Positions 6,387 through 60,587 of a stretch of 64,000 nt of DNA are shown in pieces; within the stretch, counting starts at the first letter, position 1; each line of letters starts with the position of its first letter. The stretch comes from a virus (Duplodnaviria > Caudoviricetes), in IMG/VR virus record IMGVR_UViG_3300028483_000002, positions 1-64,000 of that record; one strand, given 5' to 3'. Below the pieces are notes generated by a model, which saw only the letters and a program-made list of their open reading frames with translations, was not told the origin of the DNA and ran no database searches. The position numbers and the translations under genes are program-made.

Positions 6387-7144
6387 TTTAATACCTCCAA
6401 ATTTCCATTAAGTGTTATTTTGGAAGCATCCATTTCTATTGTTGAACCATTTTTTACAGATATAGAAATATCATTTGACTTAGTTTCTATTACATTTCCA
6501 CTTTTATCTTCTATATATATACCATCACTAGTTCTATTAATTGTATTGCCATTAACATCAATTACAGAGATTCCATCTTCATTAATTACAATGGAATTAT
6601 CCCAAGCTAACAACTTTATTTCTTTACTTTGTGATTTGTTGTTGTTTTCAGATGTATTAACAAATATCTGTATTTTTTCATCATGAGAAACAATAGAACT
6701 ATTTCCATTAGAATAATCTTCTATAATATCCCATCCACCTTGTGTTTTTGTTTCTCTGCTATTATTTTTTTCTTCTAAATCATCATCATTTTTAGCCCAT
6801 AATTCTCTTATGTTTTCATCACCACGGGAGAATCCTGAACATAAAACGAACGCACCTGTGGCTGTCTTTGTTGGTGTTAGTACAAACACCCTTGAATTGA
6901 TTGGAGGAAGATTTCTTTGAGATGGAACGTAATCTTTTTTATCATCGACTGTTACCCATTCACCAGAAACAACAGGTAAATTTTCATACTGATAGCCAGT
7001 ATCAGAAACAACTGTTACAGCGTTTTTCTTTGAATTTTGACCTATAACGATGCCCCAAAATCCAATTCTATTAGCTAGATAGTTTTCATTGGTTAAACGA
7101 GGAGGTATTGCATTCGTTTTATGGACTATTTTTCTGACAATCAT
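6383..7144 (-). CDS. Baseplate central spike (gpV/gp45-like)
   Basis: N-terminal OB-like region (LPPINSRVFVL) and C-terminal beta-strand repeats (GNTI..TSDGI.IEDKSGNVIE). Confidence 0.75.
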   Translation of the reverse strand: MIVRKIVHKTNAIPPRLTNENYLANRIGFWGIVIGQNSKKNAVTVVSDTGYQYENLPVVSGEWVTVDDKKDYVPSQRNLPPINSRVFVLTPTKTATGAFVLCSGFSRGDENIRELWAKNDDDLEEKNNSRETKTQGGWDIIEDYSNGNSSIVSHDEKIQIFVNTSENNNKSQSKEIKLLAWDNSIVINEDGISVIDVNGNTINRTSDGIYIEDKSGNVIETKSNDISISVKNGSTIEMDASKITLNGNLEVLK

Positions 7145-43734: not shown

Positions 43735-44637
43735 TTACTCCTTATTTTCTTTTTCTATTTCTGCTTCTGCGTCGATTCCAGAAATTTCTTTGAATATTTC
43801 GTTATCCCAATTTGGCAAGCCAAGAAGTTTTTTATGTTCTTCTGTGTTTGCTTTATCCCAAGCAAGTTTAAACGCTTCTTTGTATTCAAGAGTTTTTAGA
43901 AAGCCACCACAAATTTCTATCTCTTGTTTGTGCTCTTTTTTTTCTTCATCAGTAGCAGTGTCGTGAGATACCCAAACAGTTAAGTCAAAGTAAAGAAATG
44001 ATGGGAAATTAATATCATTTCTTTCAATAGCAGTTTCTTTATTGAACATTCTAAGTAATGGTGTGCTGGTATTGAAAAAACCACTATTCCAATCGCCACT
44101 ATTCCAATTGCCACTATTATAACTTCCACTGTTATAACTTCCAGTATTGTAAAAACCACTATTCCAATCGCCACTATTCCAATTGCCACTATTACGATCG
44201 CCACTATTACAATTGCCACTATTACGATCGCCACTATTCCAATTGCCACTATTATAACTTCCACTGTTATAACTTCCAGTATTGTAAAAACCACTATTCC
44301 AATCGCCACTATTCCAATCGCCACTATTACAATTGCCACTATTAATCAGTTCTTTTTTTTCATCTCCTGTAATCTCACGGAGGATTGTAATTGAATTCGT
44401 TCCGTACTTGTCGCCCTGTTTTATATATTCACCTGCGATAATTTCGCAAATTCTCGATTCTGAAAGTTTGTAATTACTTTCTTTTTTTATAGCAAGAAGT
44501 TCTCGACAAAAATGAAATACTTTGTCAGTACAACATTCTAAATCTTCTTTTTTAGTGTCTTTTGTATAAGTTTTTCCCACTTCAAACTGGAATCCTCGAC
44601 AACATAAATTTTGGTCAAATGCTTTATACCCTATCAT
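43735..44637 (-). CDS. Pentapeptide (NSGxx) repeat protein
   Basis: GYKAF..CRGFQFEVG N-terminus, NSGDW/NSGNC/NTGSY repeats, C-terminal LPNWDNEIFKEISGI. Confidence 0.85.
   Translation of the reverse strand: MIGYKAFDQNLCCRGFQFEVGKTYTKDTKKEDLECCTDKVFHFCRELLAIKKESNYKLSESRICEIIAGEYIKQGDKYGTNSITILREITGDEKKELINSGNCNSGDWNSGDWNSGFYNTGSYNSGSYNSGNWNSGDRNSGNCNSGDRNSGNWNSGDWNSGFYNTGSYNSGSYNSGNWNSGDWNSGFFNTSTPLLRMFNKETAIERNDINFPSFLYFDLTVWVSHDTATDEEKKEHKQEIEICGGFLKTLEYKEAFKLAWDKANTEEHKKLLGLPNWDNEIFKEISGIDAEAEIEKENKE
44081..44343. repeat. 15-bp coding tandem repeat with a 120-bp higher-order duplication
   Basis: CCACTATTCCAATCG-type units; block NSGDWNSGFYNTGSYNSGSYNSGNWNSGD occurs twice. Confidence 0.9.
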
Positions 44638-44988: not shown

Positions 44989-45160
44989 AAAAAAAGCTAA
45001 CCACATTTCTTCTCCCAAAAGGAGGTTGCGTAAGAAATATGATTAGCAAAAATTTTTCAACTTAAAAAATCACGCAACACAATTTCTTAAACTGAAACAA
45101 AAAAAATAATTTACATTTGTAAACTTAACTTATAATAAATCACAGGTGTTATTTTGTCAA
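44989..45160 (-). promoter_or_regulatory. Kissing-loop leader K1 (promoter, hairpin, terminator)
   Basis: TTGACA-17-TATTAT; hairpin loop GTTGCGT; terminator bulge ACGCAAC; T7. Confidence 0.7.
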
Positions 45161-47647: not shown

Positions 47648-47902
47648 TTACTCCTCCAAAACAACAGCAATATCATTGTTGTCGCAAATATGAGTAGCAC
47701 CATCAATTGTTACTTCAACTAATTTATATTTGTCTACTAGGACAACATCCCCATTTTTTATGTCTTTTATTTCGCAAGGGCATTCAACCACTAAAGCCTT
47801 GATAAATCTTTCTTCTGATTCTTTAGTTAAAATAATTCCAGAACTTGTTTTATTTTCAATTTCAATTTTTTTAATTAATACTTTGTTGTTCAACATTTTC
47901 AT
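47648..47902 (-). CDS. groES: GroES/Cpn10-like co-chaperonin
   Basis: LNNKVLIKK..KTSSGIIL..GDVVLVDKY..VTIDG. Confidence 0.85.
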   Translation of the reverse strand: MKMLNNKVLIKKIEIENKTSSGIILTKESEERFIKALVVECPCEIKDIKNGDVVLVDKYKLVEVTIDGATHICDNNDIAVVLEE

Positions 47903-51353: not shown

Positions 51354-51764
51354 TTACACCACTTGTTTTAAGTTTTGATTTTCAATCTCAACCCACTTAA
51401 AATTAACATCATCCCACTTTGCAGGAACAAAACAATTTTTTTCGATGCTCCAAATACTTCCTGGCTCAATAGGCCTTTCATTCCATTTAGTTCCATCACT
51501 TCTACAAGTATAAAATAATCGGAATGTGTCTACTGTAATCCTATCTGAATTACAATTAGGGCATCTATATTTATCTTCATAAAACAATTTGCCTTGCCCA
51601 TCTGGAGTTTTCATGTATACAGAGTAAGTAACAACAATTAAAGGCTTTAAAAAGTCTTTGTACTTTTTACCTTCGTTTTCAGCCTTTTTAACACAGTAAG
51701 GACAATATGAATATTTATCTTCTCCACTTAAATATTTTTTACCAACTTCTTTAATATTTTCCAT
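51354..51764 (-). CDS. Zinc-finger hypothetical protein
   Basis: CPYC and CPNC motifs. Confidence 0.6.
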   Translation of the reverse strand: MENIKEVGKKYLSGEDKYSYCPYCVKKAENEGKKYKDFLKPLIVVTYSVYMKTPDGQGKLFYEDKYRCPNCNSDRITVDTFRLFYTCRSDGTKWNERPIEPGSIWSIEKNCFVPAKWDDVNFKWVEIENQNLKQVV

Positions 51765-54682: not shown

Positions 54683-54842
54683 AAAAAAAGCCGCCCTGAA
54701 TCCCACAATTTCAAGACGGCCCAAATTGCTTTTAAAGCAATTAAGCAATGTGGGCAAACTTAATCACTCTACCAATTTTTTATAAAAGCACAGTTTCCTG
54801 TACCCTTATATTAAAAGTATCACATCTAATACTTTTTGTCAA
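54683..54842 (-). promoter_or_regulatory. Kissing-loop leader K2 with operator B
   Basis: TTGACA-17-TACTTT; hairpin loop CCCACA; terminator loop TGTGGG; T7. Confidence 0.65.
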
Positions 54843-56169: not shown

Positions 56170-57183
56170 TTATTCCTCCTTCCCATTGCATTCACCTTTT
56201 GGATTGTAATATGTCCCATCTTTTATTCTAGAATAAATATCAAAAGCCTTTTTTAATATTTCCATACCTTTCTCTGTAATTTTATTATCATCATCAATGT
56301 ATTCATTTGCTAAAATTGTTTTTTTACCTGTAAAATCTGCATAATGACGAATTTTTAAATATTCCTTAATCATGTTTTCAGGAATATCTAAAATTACAGA
56401 TGCTTCTTTCAATGTATAAGAATGACTTTCAACAGATTCAATAAACTTTTCAGAAGTTTTATTGATAATTTTTTGATATTCTTCTTCACCTTTTTCAATA
56501 AAACTCTCTGCAACAGCTCCAGGTTTATACTTATTAATAAAGTATGTAATCCCTTCCATATTTAAAAGAAGTTGTTCACCTGTTTTGTCTGTTGATTTGT
56601 TAAAAGTTCTTAAAGTGAAGTATTTTTGATATTCTGCTTTTGCTCTGTATTCACCAATAGAATTTTTATAAACATATTTTGCTTTCAAAATTGTCATAAA
56701 TTCTGTTTGTTTCATACCGAGTTTTGCGGCCATATCTCTAAAGTTCATTGTCTTAGATCGGTCTACTAATTCATCATAAACAACTGCTTTTGGTTGCATA
56801 ATTGCTACTTGATGTCTAATGTTGTCTAATGTTTGGTTTGCAAGTTGCAAGGCTCTAGACATTACAGCTTCTGGTGTGTTCCATGCTTTTTCGAGTCTGA
56901 TTAAATAATTGCGATATGTTTTACCAATTTCTGTTCTAGACATTAAACAGATTGATTTAGCCATATCAATAGAAATTGCATAGTCTTGAATTTCTTGTTC
57001 TCCACCATGTTGGTTGCCCTGTATCTTTAAATACACCCCAGAAAAATCTTCATTTTCAACGAACTCTTTAGAATTATTTTCCCACCAAAGAGAAAAACGA
57101 CATTTAATTTGTAAACCTTTGTACAATTCTCTAGCTGATACAGCTTGAATTCCGTCTTTTTCAATAATTTGTAATTCGTTCAT
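56170..57183 (-). CDS. AntA/AntB + KilA-C antirepressor
   Basis: AVSARELYKGL..DYAISIDMAKSICLM..R.YLIRLEKAWNTPEAVMSRAL; MQPKAVVYD. Confidence 0.9.
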   Translation of the reverse strand: MNELQIIEKDGIQAVSARELYKGLQIKCRFSLWWENNSKEFVENEDFSGVYLKIQGNQHGGEQEIQDYAISIDMAKSICLMSRTEIGKTYRNYLIRLEKAWNTPEAVMSRALQLANQTLDNIRHQVAIMQPKAVVYDELVDRSKTMNFRDMAAKLGMKQTEFMTILKAKYVYKNSIGEYRAKAEYQKYFTLRTFNKSTDKTGEQLLLNMEGITYFINKYKPGAVAESFIEKGEEEYQKIINKTSEKFIESVESHSYTLKEASVILDIPENMIKEYLKIRHYADFTGKKTILANEYIDDDNKITEKGMEILKKAFDIYSRIKDGTYYNPKGECNGKEE

Positions 57184-57185
57184 AG

Positions 57186-57878
57186 TTACCCTCTCTTTTG
57201 AAGTTTGTCTAATGTTTTTTTGATATAATCAACACCCTTTTGAAAAACAACTGTTTTAAGGTTGATGTGGGTATCTCCGTCTTTATCTTCAAACTTTGTT
57301 TCGATAACTCTGAAATATCCAGCGTCAATATATTTCTGATATGGTTGATTGTGATTGTCTAAGATTTTTTCATCTCGTAAGATTTCAAAAAGTTTATTTC
57401 TGCCGACATTCTTATAATTAAGAAGTTTTGCAACTTCTTTCATATCGCAAGTATCAGGTGAACCTGTTACTTTGTTGTAGAAGTCAACCTTTGGCTGCAT
57501 ACTATTTAGCTGTGCCATCAATTCATTGTTACGATTTTGCAAAATTGCCATTGCTTTCATAACAATTTGATTTTCTTCTACTTGTGTAGAAACAGAATCA
57601 ATTTGTCTTGTTGCCAAGTTGTGATGCTTTTGAATTTCCTGTTTAATCAATGTTGCTTGTTCTTCGGTAAAAACCTTGACAGATTGATTTCCACCATTGG
57701 TTTTTAAGGTATGGAAAGTACCTTCCACCCCTTTAGTTTTAGCTGTTTCTCTAATTGTTCTTTCTGATACTCCAAGAACTGTGGCAAGTTCTTTTGTAGT
57801 CATTGTTTTTTGATTTTGCTGTGTGGAAGTTTTCACGCTTGTAAAATCTTTATTTTCAATAATTTGCAATTCATTCAT
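57186..57878 (-). CDS. KilA-C (ANT) antirepressor
   Basis: MQPKVDFY..EVAKLL..GRNKLFEILR..PYQKYIDAGYF..TVVFQKG. Confidence 0.9.
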   Translation of the reverse strand: MNELQIIENKDFTSVKTSTQQNQKTMTTKELATVLGVSERTIRETAKTKGVEGTFHTLKTNGGNQSVKVFTEEQATLIKQEIQKHHNLATRQIDSVSTQVEENQIVMKAMAILQNRNNELMAQLNSMQPKVDFYNKVTGSPDTCDMKEVAKLLNYKNVGRNKLFEILRDEKILDNHNQPYQKYIDAGYFRVIETKFEDKDGDTHINLKTVVFQKGVDYIKKTLDKLQKRG

Positions 57879-57880
57879 AA

Positions 57881-58357
57881 TTAGTTCCCTCCATTTAATG
57901 ATTCAGGCAAAGCGTTTGTTTTTAATGTTTCTTCTGTAACTGAATTAAAGAAATCAATGTTTAGTTTCTTTGCGTTTTTCCAAAATTTAAGAAGAAATTG
58001 AAATTCTTCGTTTTCTGAATTTCTAATTCTTTCCCGAAATTCCTGTGTGGCATCAGTCAATCTTCTTTCTAGCATCATGTAATTTTTCATAATTTTATTG
58101 CGTCGTAAATTCAATGCTGCCATTTCTCTGTTGTAGATGTTTGAGCCAGGAATCATTCTTGTTGTTGCAATAAATTCAGTCTTTTCCTGTTTTAAATCAT
58201 GAAGGGAATCTTTTACTTTTCTAAAGATTTTACTTATCTCTTTTGGAGATAAAAGATCAAGTTCCTTTTCTGAAAACTGATAGTTTTCAAAATTTGAAAT
58301 TTGTAGTAAACTATTTTTTGAGTTTACCGATACTTTAATTGTAGGTGTCATAGACAT
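57881..58357 (-). CDS. Hypothetical helical protein heading the antirepressor operon
   Basis: 158 aa, GGAG RBS. Confidence 0.6.
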   Translation of the reverse strand: MSMTPTIKVSVNSKNSLLQISNFENYQFSEKELDLLSPKEISKIFRKVKDSLHDLKQEKTEFIATTRMIPGSNIYNREMAALNLRRNKIMKNYMMLERRLTDATQEFRERIRNSENEEFQFLLKFWKNAKKLNIDFFNSVTEETLKTNALPESLNGGN

Positions 58358-58417
58358 CTCCTATAAATTTTCGTGTTACTAGGTGCTTGGCGGTGCGATA
58401 AGTAACACGAAAGAAAT

Positions 58418-58560
58418 AAAAAAGGCTCAAGCCTTTTCCATCACAAAAAGTCTTGAGCCAGAGGTCTACACACCCACTTTTATAGTATCGGTGATCACCC
58501 TGACAGAGCAATCAAGTAGTGTGATGGACCTGCTTCATTACTCTATAGGTTGTAAAGATG
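58418..58560 (-). ncRNA. Structured leader/small RNA K3 (paralog of K5)
   Basis: Hairpin AGAGTAAT/ATTGCTCT with loop GTCCATCACA; terminator GGCTCAAG/CTTGAGCC with loop TGTGATGG; promoter TTGACA-16-TATAAT at 58610-58583. Confidence 0.7.
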
Positions 58561-58640
58561 AATATTCGTCTTTACATTTGTCATTATAGTTAAGTATTTA
58601 TCTTTGTCAAGTTAAAAAAGATAAATATTCATCTTTTTTT
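58551..58640. promoter_or_regulatory. Operator C sites between K3 promoter and XRE2
   Basis: TGTAAAGATGAATATTCGTCTTTACA and AAAAAAGATAAATATTCATCTTTTTT palindromes. Confidence 0.7.
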
Positions 58641-58645
58641 TAATT

Positions 58646-58915
58646 ATGGACTTCTACGAAAACGTAAAAATTCTTGTAAAAAAACATGGGCTTCAGTTAA
58701 TACCTTTGTTGGAATCGTTAGGAATTAACTATTCAACTTACAAAGGGTACAAACAGTATGGCAATCTTCCAAGAGCTGACGAAGCGGTGAAGATTGCTCA
58801 AGCCCTCGAAACCACTGTTGAATACTTAGTAACTGGTAATAAACCAGACCTAAGTTCTAAAACAAAATCTCTAATAAATGAATTAGAGATGACCATAAAT
58901 AAGTACAAAAACTAA
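58646..58915 (+). CDS. XRE-family HTH regulator 2
   Basis: LGINYSTYKGY..LPRADEAVKIAQALETTVEYLVTG. Confidence 0.9.
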   Translation: MDFYENVKILVKKHGLQLIPLLESLGINYSTYKGYKQYGNLPRADEAVKIAQALETTVEYLVTGNKPDLSSKTKSLINELEMTINKYKN

Positions 58916-59763
58916 GCATCTGGTTGAATAGATTCGTCTATTTCTGCATTGAATTTCTTCGCAAGATAAACAAGACCTTTTCCAGTAACCAATGTTACAG
59001 GTTTACTTCCAATCTCATCGTTAATATGTTTAACTACAACTTTGAAATGACCTGAGTTTATTTGGTCTTGCTTAGGAGAGTTATCTTGATTTAATACTTG
59101 TAAGGTTCTTAGATTCTGAAATAAAGTTTTGTTACCATAAGGGAGTTTTAATGCTTTTGCAGCCTGATTAACTGTATAACAGCCTTTGCCATCAGCAATG
59201 CGATTAAGAGCTGTTTCTGCTAATTCAGCTCTGACTGTTAATTCTTCAATTCTTTTATCTCGATATGCATCTAAAAGTTTTTGTTCTTCTTCTCTTTTCT
59301 TTAATAAAGCAAAAAACTCTAAATCATTGCCAATTTGAGAAACAACAGAGTTATCTTTTAAATTATTACGTTCTCTCAATTTTAATTTTATTAAGGTTGC
59401 TTGTTTTTCAGTTAATAAGTAACCACCTTGATTATTTTTTTTGACTTCGCCAAGTACTTGCCGGAGTTCGTTTATATTATTTTTAATTGTACTTTCTGCT
59501 ACTTTTAAGTCATTTGCTAATTCTTTTACAGTTACAACTACAGCAACTTCTGCTGCCTTTTTTATTTTTAATGCAGGTATTAGGTCGGTAGTAGTTTCTA
59601 ACCTACAAGGCTGCCTTGTAGGTTCTAGAGTTTCTGCAACTTGTTTCACTGTCATTGTTTTTTGATTTTGGTTAATTTCTAATTCGTTCATGTTCTGTTG
59701 AACAACCTCTTGTTTTTGTGATAAAATAACACTTGGTTTAGTCGATGATTTTATTGTAGTCAT
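58912..59763 (-). CDS. KilA-C-type antirepressor with tandem N-terminal HTH-like segments
   Basis: TMTVKQVA, VTVKELANDL; YTVNQAAKAL..GNKTLFQNLR..TLVTGKGLVYL. Confidence 0.85.
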   Translation of the reverse strand: MTTIKSSTKPSVILSQKQEVVQQNMNELEINQNQKTMTVKQVAETLEPTRQPCRLETTTDLIPALKIKKAAEVAVVVTVKELANDLKVAESTIKNNINELRQVLGEVKKNNQGGYLLTEKQATLIKLKLRERNNLKDNSVVSQIGNDLEFFALLKKREEEQKLLDAYRDKRIEELTVRAELAETALNRIADGKGCYTVNQAAKALKLPYGNKTLFQNLRTLQVLNQDNSPKQDQINSGHFKVVVKHINDEIGSKPVTLVTGKGLVYLAKKFNAEIDESIQPDA

Positions 59764-59779
59764 TAACTATCTCCTTTTT

Positions 59780-60006
59780 AAAATTAGAGAAGTTAAGGGT
59801 TTTTATCTCTAATTTTTAAGATAAAAAACGACCCTAAAAACTTTCCTACATTGCAACTGCAATGTTAACCCCAGGAAAGTTTTTAAGGTCGTAAGTTGTT
59901 TTACCAACTTAGAAATGGGGTTAAAATTTCTAAAGTGGCAAACTAACCTTATAATTAACGTTTGTAAACTACAATTTAATATAAAATACATCTGTTGCTT
60001 TGTCAA
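59780..60006 (-). promoter_or_regulatory. Kissing-loop leader K4
   Basis: TTGACA-17-TATATT; hairpin loop TAACCCC; long terminator with GGGGTTA bulge. Confidence 0.7.
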
Positions 60007-60061
60007 TAATATTTACATTTGTTAATTTTTATTAAAGTAATTTATGTATAAACCGATACAT

Positions 60062-60190
60062 AAAAAAAGGCACAAGCCTTATCTTCCCTTTAAGACTTGT
60101 GCCAAACGGAGTAAAACCTAATATAGGATGGCGATTACCCTCGGCAGAGCAATCAAATAATAGGGAAGCCTTATTTCATTGCTCTAGTTA
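60062..60190 (-). ncRNA. Small structured RNA K5 (paralog of K3)
   Basis: Promoter TTGACA-17-TATATA (60221-60193); hairpin AGAGCAAT/ATTGCTCT loop GGCTTCCCTA; terminator GGCACAAG/CTTGTGCC loop AAGGGAAGA; T7. Confidence 0.72.
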
Positions 60191-60260
60191 TATATATAAT
60201 ACACATTTGTTTAATTGTCAATAAACTTTTGTGTATTAATTATTAATATTTAAAATTATT

Positions 60261-60587
60261 ATGGAATTTTCTGCTGAATTAATTATTAATCGCATAAAAG
60301 ATTTATGTGAATTGAAAGAATTAGAAAAAATAAGTATTTCTCCCCAAGTAGTTTCAAATTGGAAATCAAGAAATACAGTGCCAAAAGCAGATGATTTATA
60401 CAGAATTGCAAAATATTTAAATGTAACAATGGAATGGCTGCTAACCGGAGAGAATCCAAATACAGAACTTCCAGAAGATATTCAAAAATCAGTTCAAAAA
60501 ATGCTAACTTTAACCGAAAAGCAACGTGAACCAATTAATGTGCTTATTGACGGACAAGTAAATTATTGGAAAAATATAGATAGATAG
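60261..60587 (+). CDS. XRE-family HTH regulator 3 (candidate CI-like repressor)
   Basis: ISPQVVSNWKSRNTVPKADDLYRIAKYLNVTMEWLLTG. Confidence 0.9.
   Translation: MEFSAELIINRIKDLCELKELEKISISPQVVSNWKSRNTVPKADDLYRIAKYLNVTMEWLLTGENPNTELPEDIQKSVQKMLTLTEKQREPINVLIDGQVNYWKNIDR

Follow-up and report, generated by a model that had tools for sequence, protein, structure and literature searches.

The c4 RNA of phages P1 and P7 carries segments a′ and b′ that pair with segments a2 and b2, the CI RNA of P4 carries a seqB that pairs with seqA and seqC, and the CA RNA of N15 is also a leader-derived immunity RNA. To our knowledge, the promoter-proximal terminators and leader-derived immunity RNAs characterised so far all come from a few enterobacterial phages. 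Here we describe K3 and K5, two paralogous leader RNAs encoded in a 64,000-nt stretch (the window, to which all coordinates refer unless a contig is named) that forms part of a 73.6-kb uncultured virus record in IMG/VR (IMGVR_UViG_3300028483_000002; Duplodnaviria, Caudoviricetes), together with the family to which they belong. In these leaders the loop of a conserved 5′ hairpin, hereafter hairpin P1, is complementary to the loop of the leader's own intrinsic terminator. We establish below how these RNAs are built, how both of their pairings covary, where they lie in the genome and that Rfam contains no match to them; K is a real RNA family that is uncatalogued in Rfam 15.

P4 CI is a leader RNA whose output is premature termination. 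Gifsy-1 IsrK, a prophage leader, has two forms, a short one that stops at the leader's terminator and a long one that reads through it, and the short form acts on the long one. Both systems are precedents for the action of a terminated leader RNA on transcripts from the locus that encodes it (PMC4825925). Judged by analogy, the K RNAs appear closest in their working to the P4, P1 and N15 leader RNAs and to the PR′-6S-tR′ unit of lambda. As in the former group, a short RNA would arise from the leader of an immunity or antirepressor operon, and short complementary segments within one transcript are altered in matched pairs between heteroimmune phages. Unlike them, K has one segment pair instead of two, its promoters look repressor-controlled and not constitutive, and most of its alleles do not precede antirepressor (ant) genes. 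A preliminary description of K3 and K5 had drawn a parallel with phage P1 c4, which does not hold in its essential point: the partner of the K loop sits in the loop of its own terminator, not at ribosome-binding or flanking sites. No c4-type control of ant by pairing at the ribosome-binding region was found, and K is not a member of the Rfam C4 family, to which it has no sequence or structure similarity.

The lambdoid PR′-6S RNA-tR′ unit, which is released by Q, resembles K in that a promoter-proximal intrinsic terminator, predicted in the case of K, cuts most transcripts down to a short RNA and gates a long operon. K differs from it in having a conserved kissing-loop fold and an alternative helix and in that it would gate early instead of late genes, and no Q-like protein or qut-like element was found here, with ∼30 ORFs scanned. 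IsrK has no sequence similarity to K and, unlike K, acts on the translation of a downstream open reading frame (ORF) by linear pairing, without a kiss between a loop and a terminator. The L5-L13 interaction of the cobalamin riboswitch is comparable in that a structured upstream domain makes a loop-loop kiss with the regulatory hairpin of the expression platform; however, K has no evident ligand-binding core, its loop letters are hypervariable and its regulatory hairpin is a full intrinsic terminator. We found no paper describing a leader with hairpin-to-terminator kissing in phages.

Anatomy and covariation of the K leaders

K3 and K5 are predicted to be minus-strand transcripts, because the U tract is present on the minus strand only. 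K3 (58418-58544, minus strand, read from 58544 to 58418; ∼127 nt; 138.9 bits with the covariance model R1, built from K3, K5 and one relative) consists of hairpin P1, a middle hairpin and a terminator. The 5′ strand of P1 (AGAGUAAUGAA, 58534-58544) is followed by the kissing segment of loop L1 (UCCAUCACA, 58520-58528) and the 3′ strand of P1 (UUGAUUGCUCU, 58505-58515), which is also able to pair with the next element. This element (3) (AGGGUGAUCA, 58492-58501) is both the partner in an alternative helix and the 5′ part of the middle hairpin. The terminator hairpin (58424-58459) carries in its loop the L3 kissing segment (UGUGAUGGA, 58437-58445) and is followed by a U6 tract (58418-58423). K5 (60062-60185, minus strand, read from 60185 to 60062; ∼124 nt) has its P1 strands at 60175-60185 and 60146-60156, the L1 kissing segment CUUCCCU at 60162-60168, element (3) at 60132-60141, the terminator at 60069-60103 with the L3 kissing segment AGGGAAG at 60083-60089, and a U7 tract at 60062-60068.

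Aligned on the minus strand, the two RNAs are ∼80% identical and have the same order of parts, namely P1, the element GGGU(G/A)AUC(A/G)CC (GGGURAUCRCC), a variable middle hairpin, a GC-rich hairpin and U6/U7. The common motif AGAG(U/C)AAUGAA ... UUGAUUGCUCUG forms an 11-bp hairpin stem with one G·G mismatch; the stem strands, AGAGYAAUGAA and UUGAUUGCUCU, are near-identical in K3 and K5 and enclose an 18-nt variable interior. The terminator stem reads GGC(U/A)CAAG ... CUUG(A/U)GCC, followed by U6 in K3 and U7 in K5, and its U/A difference is matched by a compensating change on the opposite strand. The shared elements named in the preliminary description are thus all present, on the minus strand. 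The loop complementarity that it reported within each copy is exact in both; the 7 bp given for K5 stand, and the 8 bp given for K3 are in fact 9.

Folding energies lie well below those of shuffled sequences (z = -3.0 for K3 and -4.6 for K5). In ViennaRNA predictions K5 forms P1 and the terminator, and K3 has two folds of nearly equal energy. Protein coding was considered and rejected as an explanation of the two regions: only K3 overlaps an ORF, of 58 amino acids (aa) on the minus strand, K5 has no counterpart of it, and the alignment gaps are out of frame.

Motif scans of IMG/VR and JGI metagenomes, together with R1, recovered further members, giving ten distinct alleles: K2, K3 and K5 in the window, and L005, L009, L051, L165, L227, L264 and L278 in other metagenomic phage contigs. 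K2 (54683-54770, minus strand, read from 54770 to 54683; 17.5 bits with R1) is a third paralogue and a short form that lacks the middle hairpin. It lies directly before recT, with its L1 kissing segment CCCACA at 54749-54754, its L3 segment UGUGGG at 54702-54707 and a U7 tract.

In 10/10 alleles the loop of P1 matches that of the terminator over 6-9 Watson-Crick pairs, with different letters in each. The loop pairs (P1/terminator) are UCCAUCACA/UGUGAUGGA in K3 (9 bp), CUUCCCU/AGGGAAG in K5 (7 bp), CCCACA/UGUGGG in K2, CACCGC/GCGGUG in L005, CUGUCAGAA/UUCUGACAG in L009, CCCCAC/GUGGGG in L051, CCGUACA/UGUACGG in L165, CAGCGC/GCGCUG in L227, CAGGUCUU/AAGACCUG in L264 and CCUCACA/UGUGAGG in L278. 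Pair counts were made by anchored scripts, since a MAFFT alignment of the seven short and medium forms misplaced the loops. Covariation thus preserves a long-range pairing across independent alleles, as in kissing-loop or pseudoknotted families. The earlier proposal that K3 and K5 are paralogous members of a genuine family of structured RNAs is borne out, and the database search with a covariance model that had been suggested for it yielded further alleles, none of which has non-complementary loops.

When the first eight alleles are combined in an 8 × 8 matrix, 53 of the 56 mismatched loop combinations give 2-4 bp, and the only 6-bp cross-match is between the similar loops of K2 and L051. Shuffling of the first loop yields complementarity of equal length in 0.04% (K3) and 2% (K5) of trials, and the frequency per allele ranges from 0.0003 to 0.06. 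Cross-complementarity among K3, K5 and K2 is at most 4 bp. The 9-mers of K3 have no other occurrence in the 73.6-kb phage, while the K5 7-mer has a few other matches, all of them away from the ribosome-binding sites of the genes downstream. In P1 the kissing segment lies 13-18 nt from the base of the stem, and in the terminator mostly 11-15 nt; such similar hairpin heights would fit two hairpins lying side by side and joined by a kissing helix of 6-9 bp. An 8-nt match between the first loop of K5 and the 5′ strand of the K5 terminator was also considered, and was dropped as it is absent from the other alleles.

The P1 stem pairs in all ten alleles, and its inner positions show compensatory changes (A-U, G-C, U-A). 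It is also conserved in sequence, across phages with unrelated repressors, and the G·G mismatch in its middle is retained in 8/10 alleles. An alternative helix between the 3′ strand of P1 and the following element (core GAUUGC/GCAAUC) is possible in 10/10 alleles, and in K2 and L227 one of its G-C pairs is replaced by A-U through changes on both sides. Folding with the 5′ strand of P1 blocked gives the alternative helix in every allele, and the terminator persists. In these models the K RNA has two conserved states, and the switch between them is not a classical antiterminator, a candidate that was rejected on finding the terminator intact in all alleles under such blocking.

Between the alternative helix and the terminator, L165, L227 and L278 alone have a small GNRA-capped hairpin with a covarying stem, which is boxB-like (GCAA at L165:5046-5059, GAAA at L227:2788-2797 and GAAA at L278 ∼2622-2633). 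Its presence suggests a compact tertiary fold.

The terminator is of the intrinsic type, a GC-rich hairpin directly before a U tract on the transcribed strand. A GC-rich stem of 8-16 bp followed by U6-U8 is present in 9/10 alleles; one or two other bases precede the U tract in L009 and L264, and the tract is interrupted in L051 and L278. The terminator stems differ between alleles, and the U tract is confined to one strand. A simple terminator scan reports only truncated versions of these hairpins, because their loops exceed the limit of the scan.

As a control of specificity, R1 was run on ∼890 kb of phage DNA that had been chosen because it matched the motif in part, and its sole match was the true member L278. 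Apart from duplicates of alleles already known, the motif scan of JGI metagenomes contributed only L051. In 185,579 prokaryote genomes (one per species) the strict motif has only chance matches within coding regions, so that the family is rare or absent in reference prokaryote genomes. Searches of 50,697 phage records by blastn with the K3 and K5 regions returned no real match. The large terminase of the phage is only 37% identical to its nearest known relative, and protein-guided searches (with the 158-aa protein encoded after K3, the antirepressor Ant283, the first gene of L165 and RecT) found few relatives. None of the RecT relatives found has a K element upstream of recT, and in L264 the K element lies downstream of recT.

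Comparison with Rfam 15 by cmscan gave no match in the whole window at gathering scores. At E ≤ 10, the region 58300-60300 gave 18 weak matches, none of them C4-type; the sole match that coincides in position and strand with part of a K RNA is to a coronavirus 5′UTR model (E = 7.1). The suggestion that K3 and K5 represent a new family, which a match to Rfam (including C4) would have overturned, therefore stands.

Promoters, gene context and mosaic exchange

The K3 promoter (TTGACA-16-TATAAT, 12/12 matches; 58583-58610, minus strand) is separated from K3 by a putative operator, a palindrome read by eye at 58554-58575, between the -10 hexamer and the RNA. This imperfect palindrome, AAGAYRAATATTCRTCTT, occurs in two copies that flank the promoter (58554-58575 and ∼58617-58637); they are probably operators for the 89-aa XRE protein. 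The presumed K5 promoter has its -35 hexamer TTGACA at 60216-60221 (minus strand), flanked by the inverted repeat ATACACAA/TTGTGTAT. In 5/10 alleles (K2, K3, L051, L165 and L278) a scripted search places the end of a promoter match 35-43 nt before P1, and the interval between promoter and P1 holds an operator-like palindrome in K3, L051, L165 and L278, which is repeated near the promoter in K3 and L278. The L227 promoter, read by eye, is TTGACT-17-TAAAAA, ∼38 nt before P1, and in K5, L005 and L264 the RNA would begin ∼6-10 nt after the presumed -10 hexamer.

As described previously, each of the two RNAs is divergent from its own helix-turn-helix (HTH) gene, an XRE-type gene of 89 aa for K3 (58646-58915, plus strand) and a CI-type repressor gene of 108 aa for K5 (60261-60587, plus strand), and each lies upstream of antirepressor genes. 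K3 is followed by genes for a 158-aa protein without assigned family, a KilAC antirepressor of 230 aa and an AntA+KilAC antirepressor of 337 aa (56170-58357, minus strand), and Ant283, a KilAC antirepressor of 283 aa (58912-59763, minus strand), is encoded downstream of K5 and of a further leader, K4. Six of the ten alleles (K3, K5, L005, L165, L227 and L278) are divergent from an HTH repressor gene, and antirepressor genes follow only three (K3, K5 and L005), so that the family as a whole is not tied to antirepressor operons as had been supposed. The other downstream genes are recT (K2, L051), erf (L009), a DUF6291 gene (L264) and small early genes (L165, L227, L278), and K2, L051, L009 and L264 have their own promoter within early operons.

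L165 and L227 have a first gene that is 93% identical, with homology beginning right after the terminator; their K alleles are different and their repressors unrelated. The CI-type proteins next to K5 and L005 (60261-60587 and L005:4893-5231) are identical over their C-terminal ∼60 residues and ∼40% identical in the N-terminal HTH part, and this boundary within the gene appears to be a recombination point at which DNA-binding specificity is swapped together with the K allele and the ant gene. Between K5 and its L005 orthologue, 21/22 P1-stem and 24/24 terminator-stem bases are common, and both loops are replaced. On this sequence evidence, the K element belongs to an exchangeable, mosaic immunity module and changes together with the repressor.

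The suggestion that the RNAs set immunity specificity is therefore upheld in part, in that K lies in a mosaic immunity region and changes with the repressor. The operator-like palindromes argue against standing immunity: since they overlap the K promoters, K RNA is probably not made in a repressed lysogen, and a standing-immunity role of the phage P1 or P4 type is thereby weakened.

Proposed working and alternative readings

We give an even chance to the best-supported reading, in which K3, K5 and K2 are copies of a leader RNA that acts as a promoter-proximal, cis-folding conditional terminator, or transcription gate. Transcription would start at an early promoter, usually divergent from a repressor gene and overlapped by operator-like palindromes. 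The conserved P1 hairpin would fold first and present a loop of ∼10 nt; ∼10-45 nt further on, the GC-rich hairpin with U6-U8 would stop most polymerases and free an RNA of ∼85-125 nt. The P1 loop could then pair with the terminator loop of the same molecule, placing the two hairpins side by side. Pairing of the 3′ strand of P1 with the following element would be the alternative state, which withdraws the first loop. Switching between the two states by some factor would set the transcription that enters the early genes (antirepressors, recT and others). Every lineage and paralogue has its own loop pair because the loop letters need only match each other. Termination itself, the kiss in cis and the sense in which the kiss acts are our inferences.

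Several points weigh against such a cis gate. The terminator forms in both states in every minimum-free-energy prediction, and no classical antiterminator was found. The start, end, abundance and termination efficiency of the RNA are model predictions, and the -10 hexamer of the K5 promoter (TATATA/TATTAT) is imperfect and was missed by the promoter scan. Among ∼30 ORFs searched with Pfam and PHROGs, several of which have no family, there is no Q-, N- or RinA-type antiterminator. Finally, a kiss with a purely structural role in cis would not obviously need loops so divergent on near-identical backbones, and such replacement of loops is also what would be expected of a trans-acting specificity determinant.

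The terminated K RNA might be a self-addressed riboregulator that accumulates and acts in trans by kissing nascent or read-through copies of the same leader, a possibility that is the main rival and that we rate as real but somewhat unlikely. The P1 loop of one copy would meet the terminator loop of a second copy. Termination would be enforced (immunity, as with P4 CI) or relieved when K RNA becomes plentiful (a filter for threshold or commitment), and the loop pair would be an address preventing cross-talk between paralogues and heteroimmune phages. The replacement of loops on almost identical stems between orthologues, the mutual orthogonality of the three paralogues (cross-complementarity ≤4 bp) and the change of K allele with repressor in mosaic immunity regions are consistent with this, the matched hairpin heights would also suit an antiparallel dimer, and P4 CI RNA and Gifsy-1 IsrK are precedents (PMC4825925). 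However, orthogonality of this level is the chance expectation, and standing immunity sits badly with the operator-like palindromes at the K promoters, which make the RNA probably absent from a stable lysogen. An immunity role is also hard to see for the four alleles in early operons before recombination genes. The kiss might instead only shape the scaffold of a loading or recognition site for a protein or RNA polymerase, similar to the lambda nut/N system or HK022 put, with a factor that binds the P1 stem, its G·G mismatch and the GNRA hairpin deciding whether the terminator is read through. Conservation of P1 in sequence and not just in pairing across phages with unrelated repressors would fit such a site, as would the mismatch in 8/10 alleles, the boxB-like hairpins in three and the position of K just downstream of early promoters, where nut and put sites also lie. 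We nevertheless find it doubtful, since the ORFs scanned include no member of an antiterminator family, seven alleles lack the GNRA hairpin, and the conservation of P1 sequence is already explained by one strand pairing with two partners.

A riboswitch-like sensor of a small molecule or ion, in which the kissing loop would connect the sensor to the expression-platform hairpin, might be suspected from the compactness of the RNA, the kiss onto a regulatory hairpin, the GNRA hairpin and the two alternative helices. This is very unlikely, as there is no Rfam riboswitch match and, within a sample of ten alleles only, no obvious conserved unpaired core in the short forms that could make a ligand pocket; these forms contain little beyond two hairpins, and the downstream genes have no common metabolic theme. 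Least credible of all is that no RNA is involved and that the repeats around ordinary terminators are inverted by chance or serve as sites where proteins bind the DNA. The word GCAAU(C/G)A, present in three copies, could in principle be a DNA half-site, but the spacing of the copies varies between alleles, the loops are complementary in 10/10 alleles with different letters, G·U-type variation is tolerated on one strand only, and the U tract is found on one strand only.

If it acts as a gate, K brings an RNA solution of another kind to the centre of the lysis-lysogeny switch: a leader right after a repressor-controlled early promoter, whose terminator would be wired to an upstream hairpin by a re-addressable kissing helix and which has a conserved alternative fold. 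Even with a kiss that forms only in cis, this would be a new attenuator architecture. Should the address act in trans, superinfection immunity or lytic commitment would have a new determinant, and the loop pairs would be ready-made orthogonal RNA parts. With three members in a single genome, the ten alleles found in nature form a compact set that is sufficient for compensatory-mutation work.

Leaders of the same design and neighbouring features

Four other leaders have no sequence similarity to K, yet carry a hairpin loop complementary to a bulge of their terminator. K4 (59810-60006, minus strand) consists of a second promoter, TTGACA-17-TATATT, and a leader without homology to K, in which the hairpin loop UUAACCCC (59917-59924) is complementary to the bulge GGGGUUAA (59865-59872) of a long terminator. 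The K1 leader (∼44990-45110, minus strand) has the pair GUUGCGU/ACGCAAC. In both K1 and K4 the 7-8 nt bulge is on the 5′ side of the terminator, which also has an apical mini-hairpin. A search of the whole phage for other targets of the K3 and K4 loop words gave none beyond their own hairpin and terminator. In L005, the leader at 6780-6975 precedes an orthologue of the 158-aa gene (99% identical), the position held by K3, and has the 8-bp pair UCUGCACA/UGUGCAGA. In L156, the leader at 400-530 precedes a relative of Ant283 (83% identical), the position held by K4, with a 7-bp match between loop and terminator bulge (UUCCCAC/GUGGGAA).

The boldest proposal takes these leaders together with K and can be advanced only tentatively. 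The K RNAs would be self-addressed gates, in which a terminated leader recognises leaders with its own loop pair and shuts or opens their terminator in trans, adding a layer of immunity or commitment at the RNA level. Its specificity would evolve by paired loop changes alongside that of repressor and operator, and with the K1, K4, L005 and L156 leaders it would amount to a widespread, undescribed form of phage transcription control.

An extra hairpin is present past the leader terminator and ahead of the first gene's ribosome-binding site, at 58368-58412 (minus strand) in the window and at L005:5531-5572 and L005:6981-7026. The loops of all three contain CGCCAA, despite the different leaders upstream. 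Elsewhere in the window, the K1 leader is followed by a gene for a 300-aa pentapeptide-repeat protein with a DUF7666 domain (43735-44637, minus strand), and a GroES-like co-chaperonin is encoded at 47648-47902 (minus strand). A 136-aa early protein with a TFIIB-type zinc ribbon (Pfam E = 5e-8), encoded at 51354-51764 (minus strand), is a candidate transcription factor.

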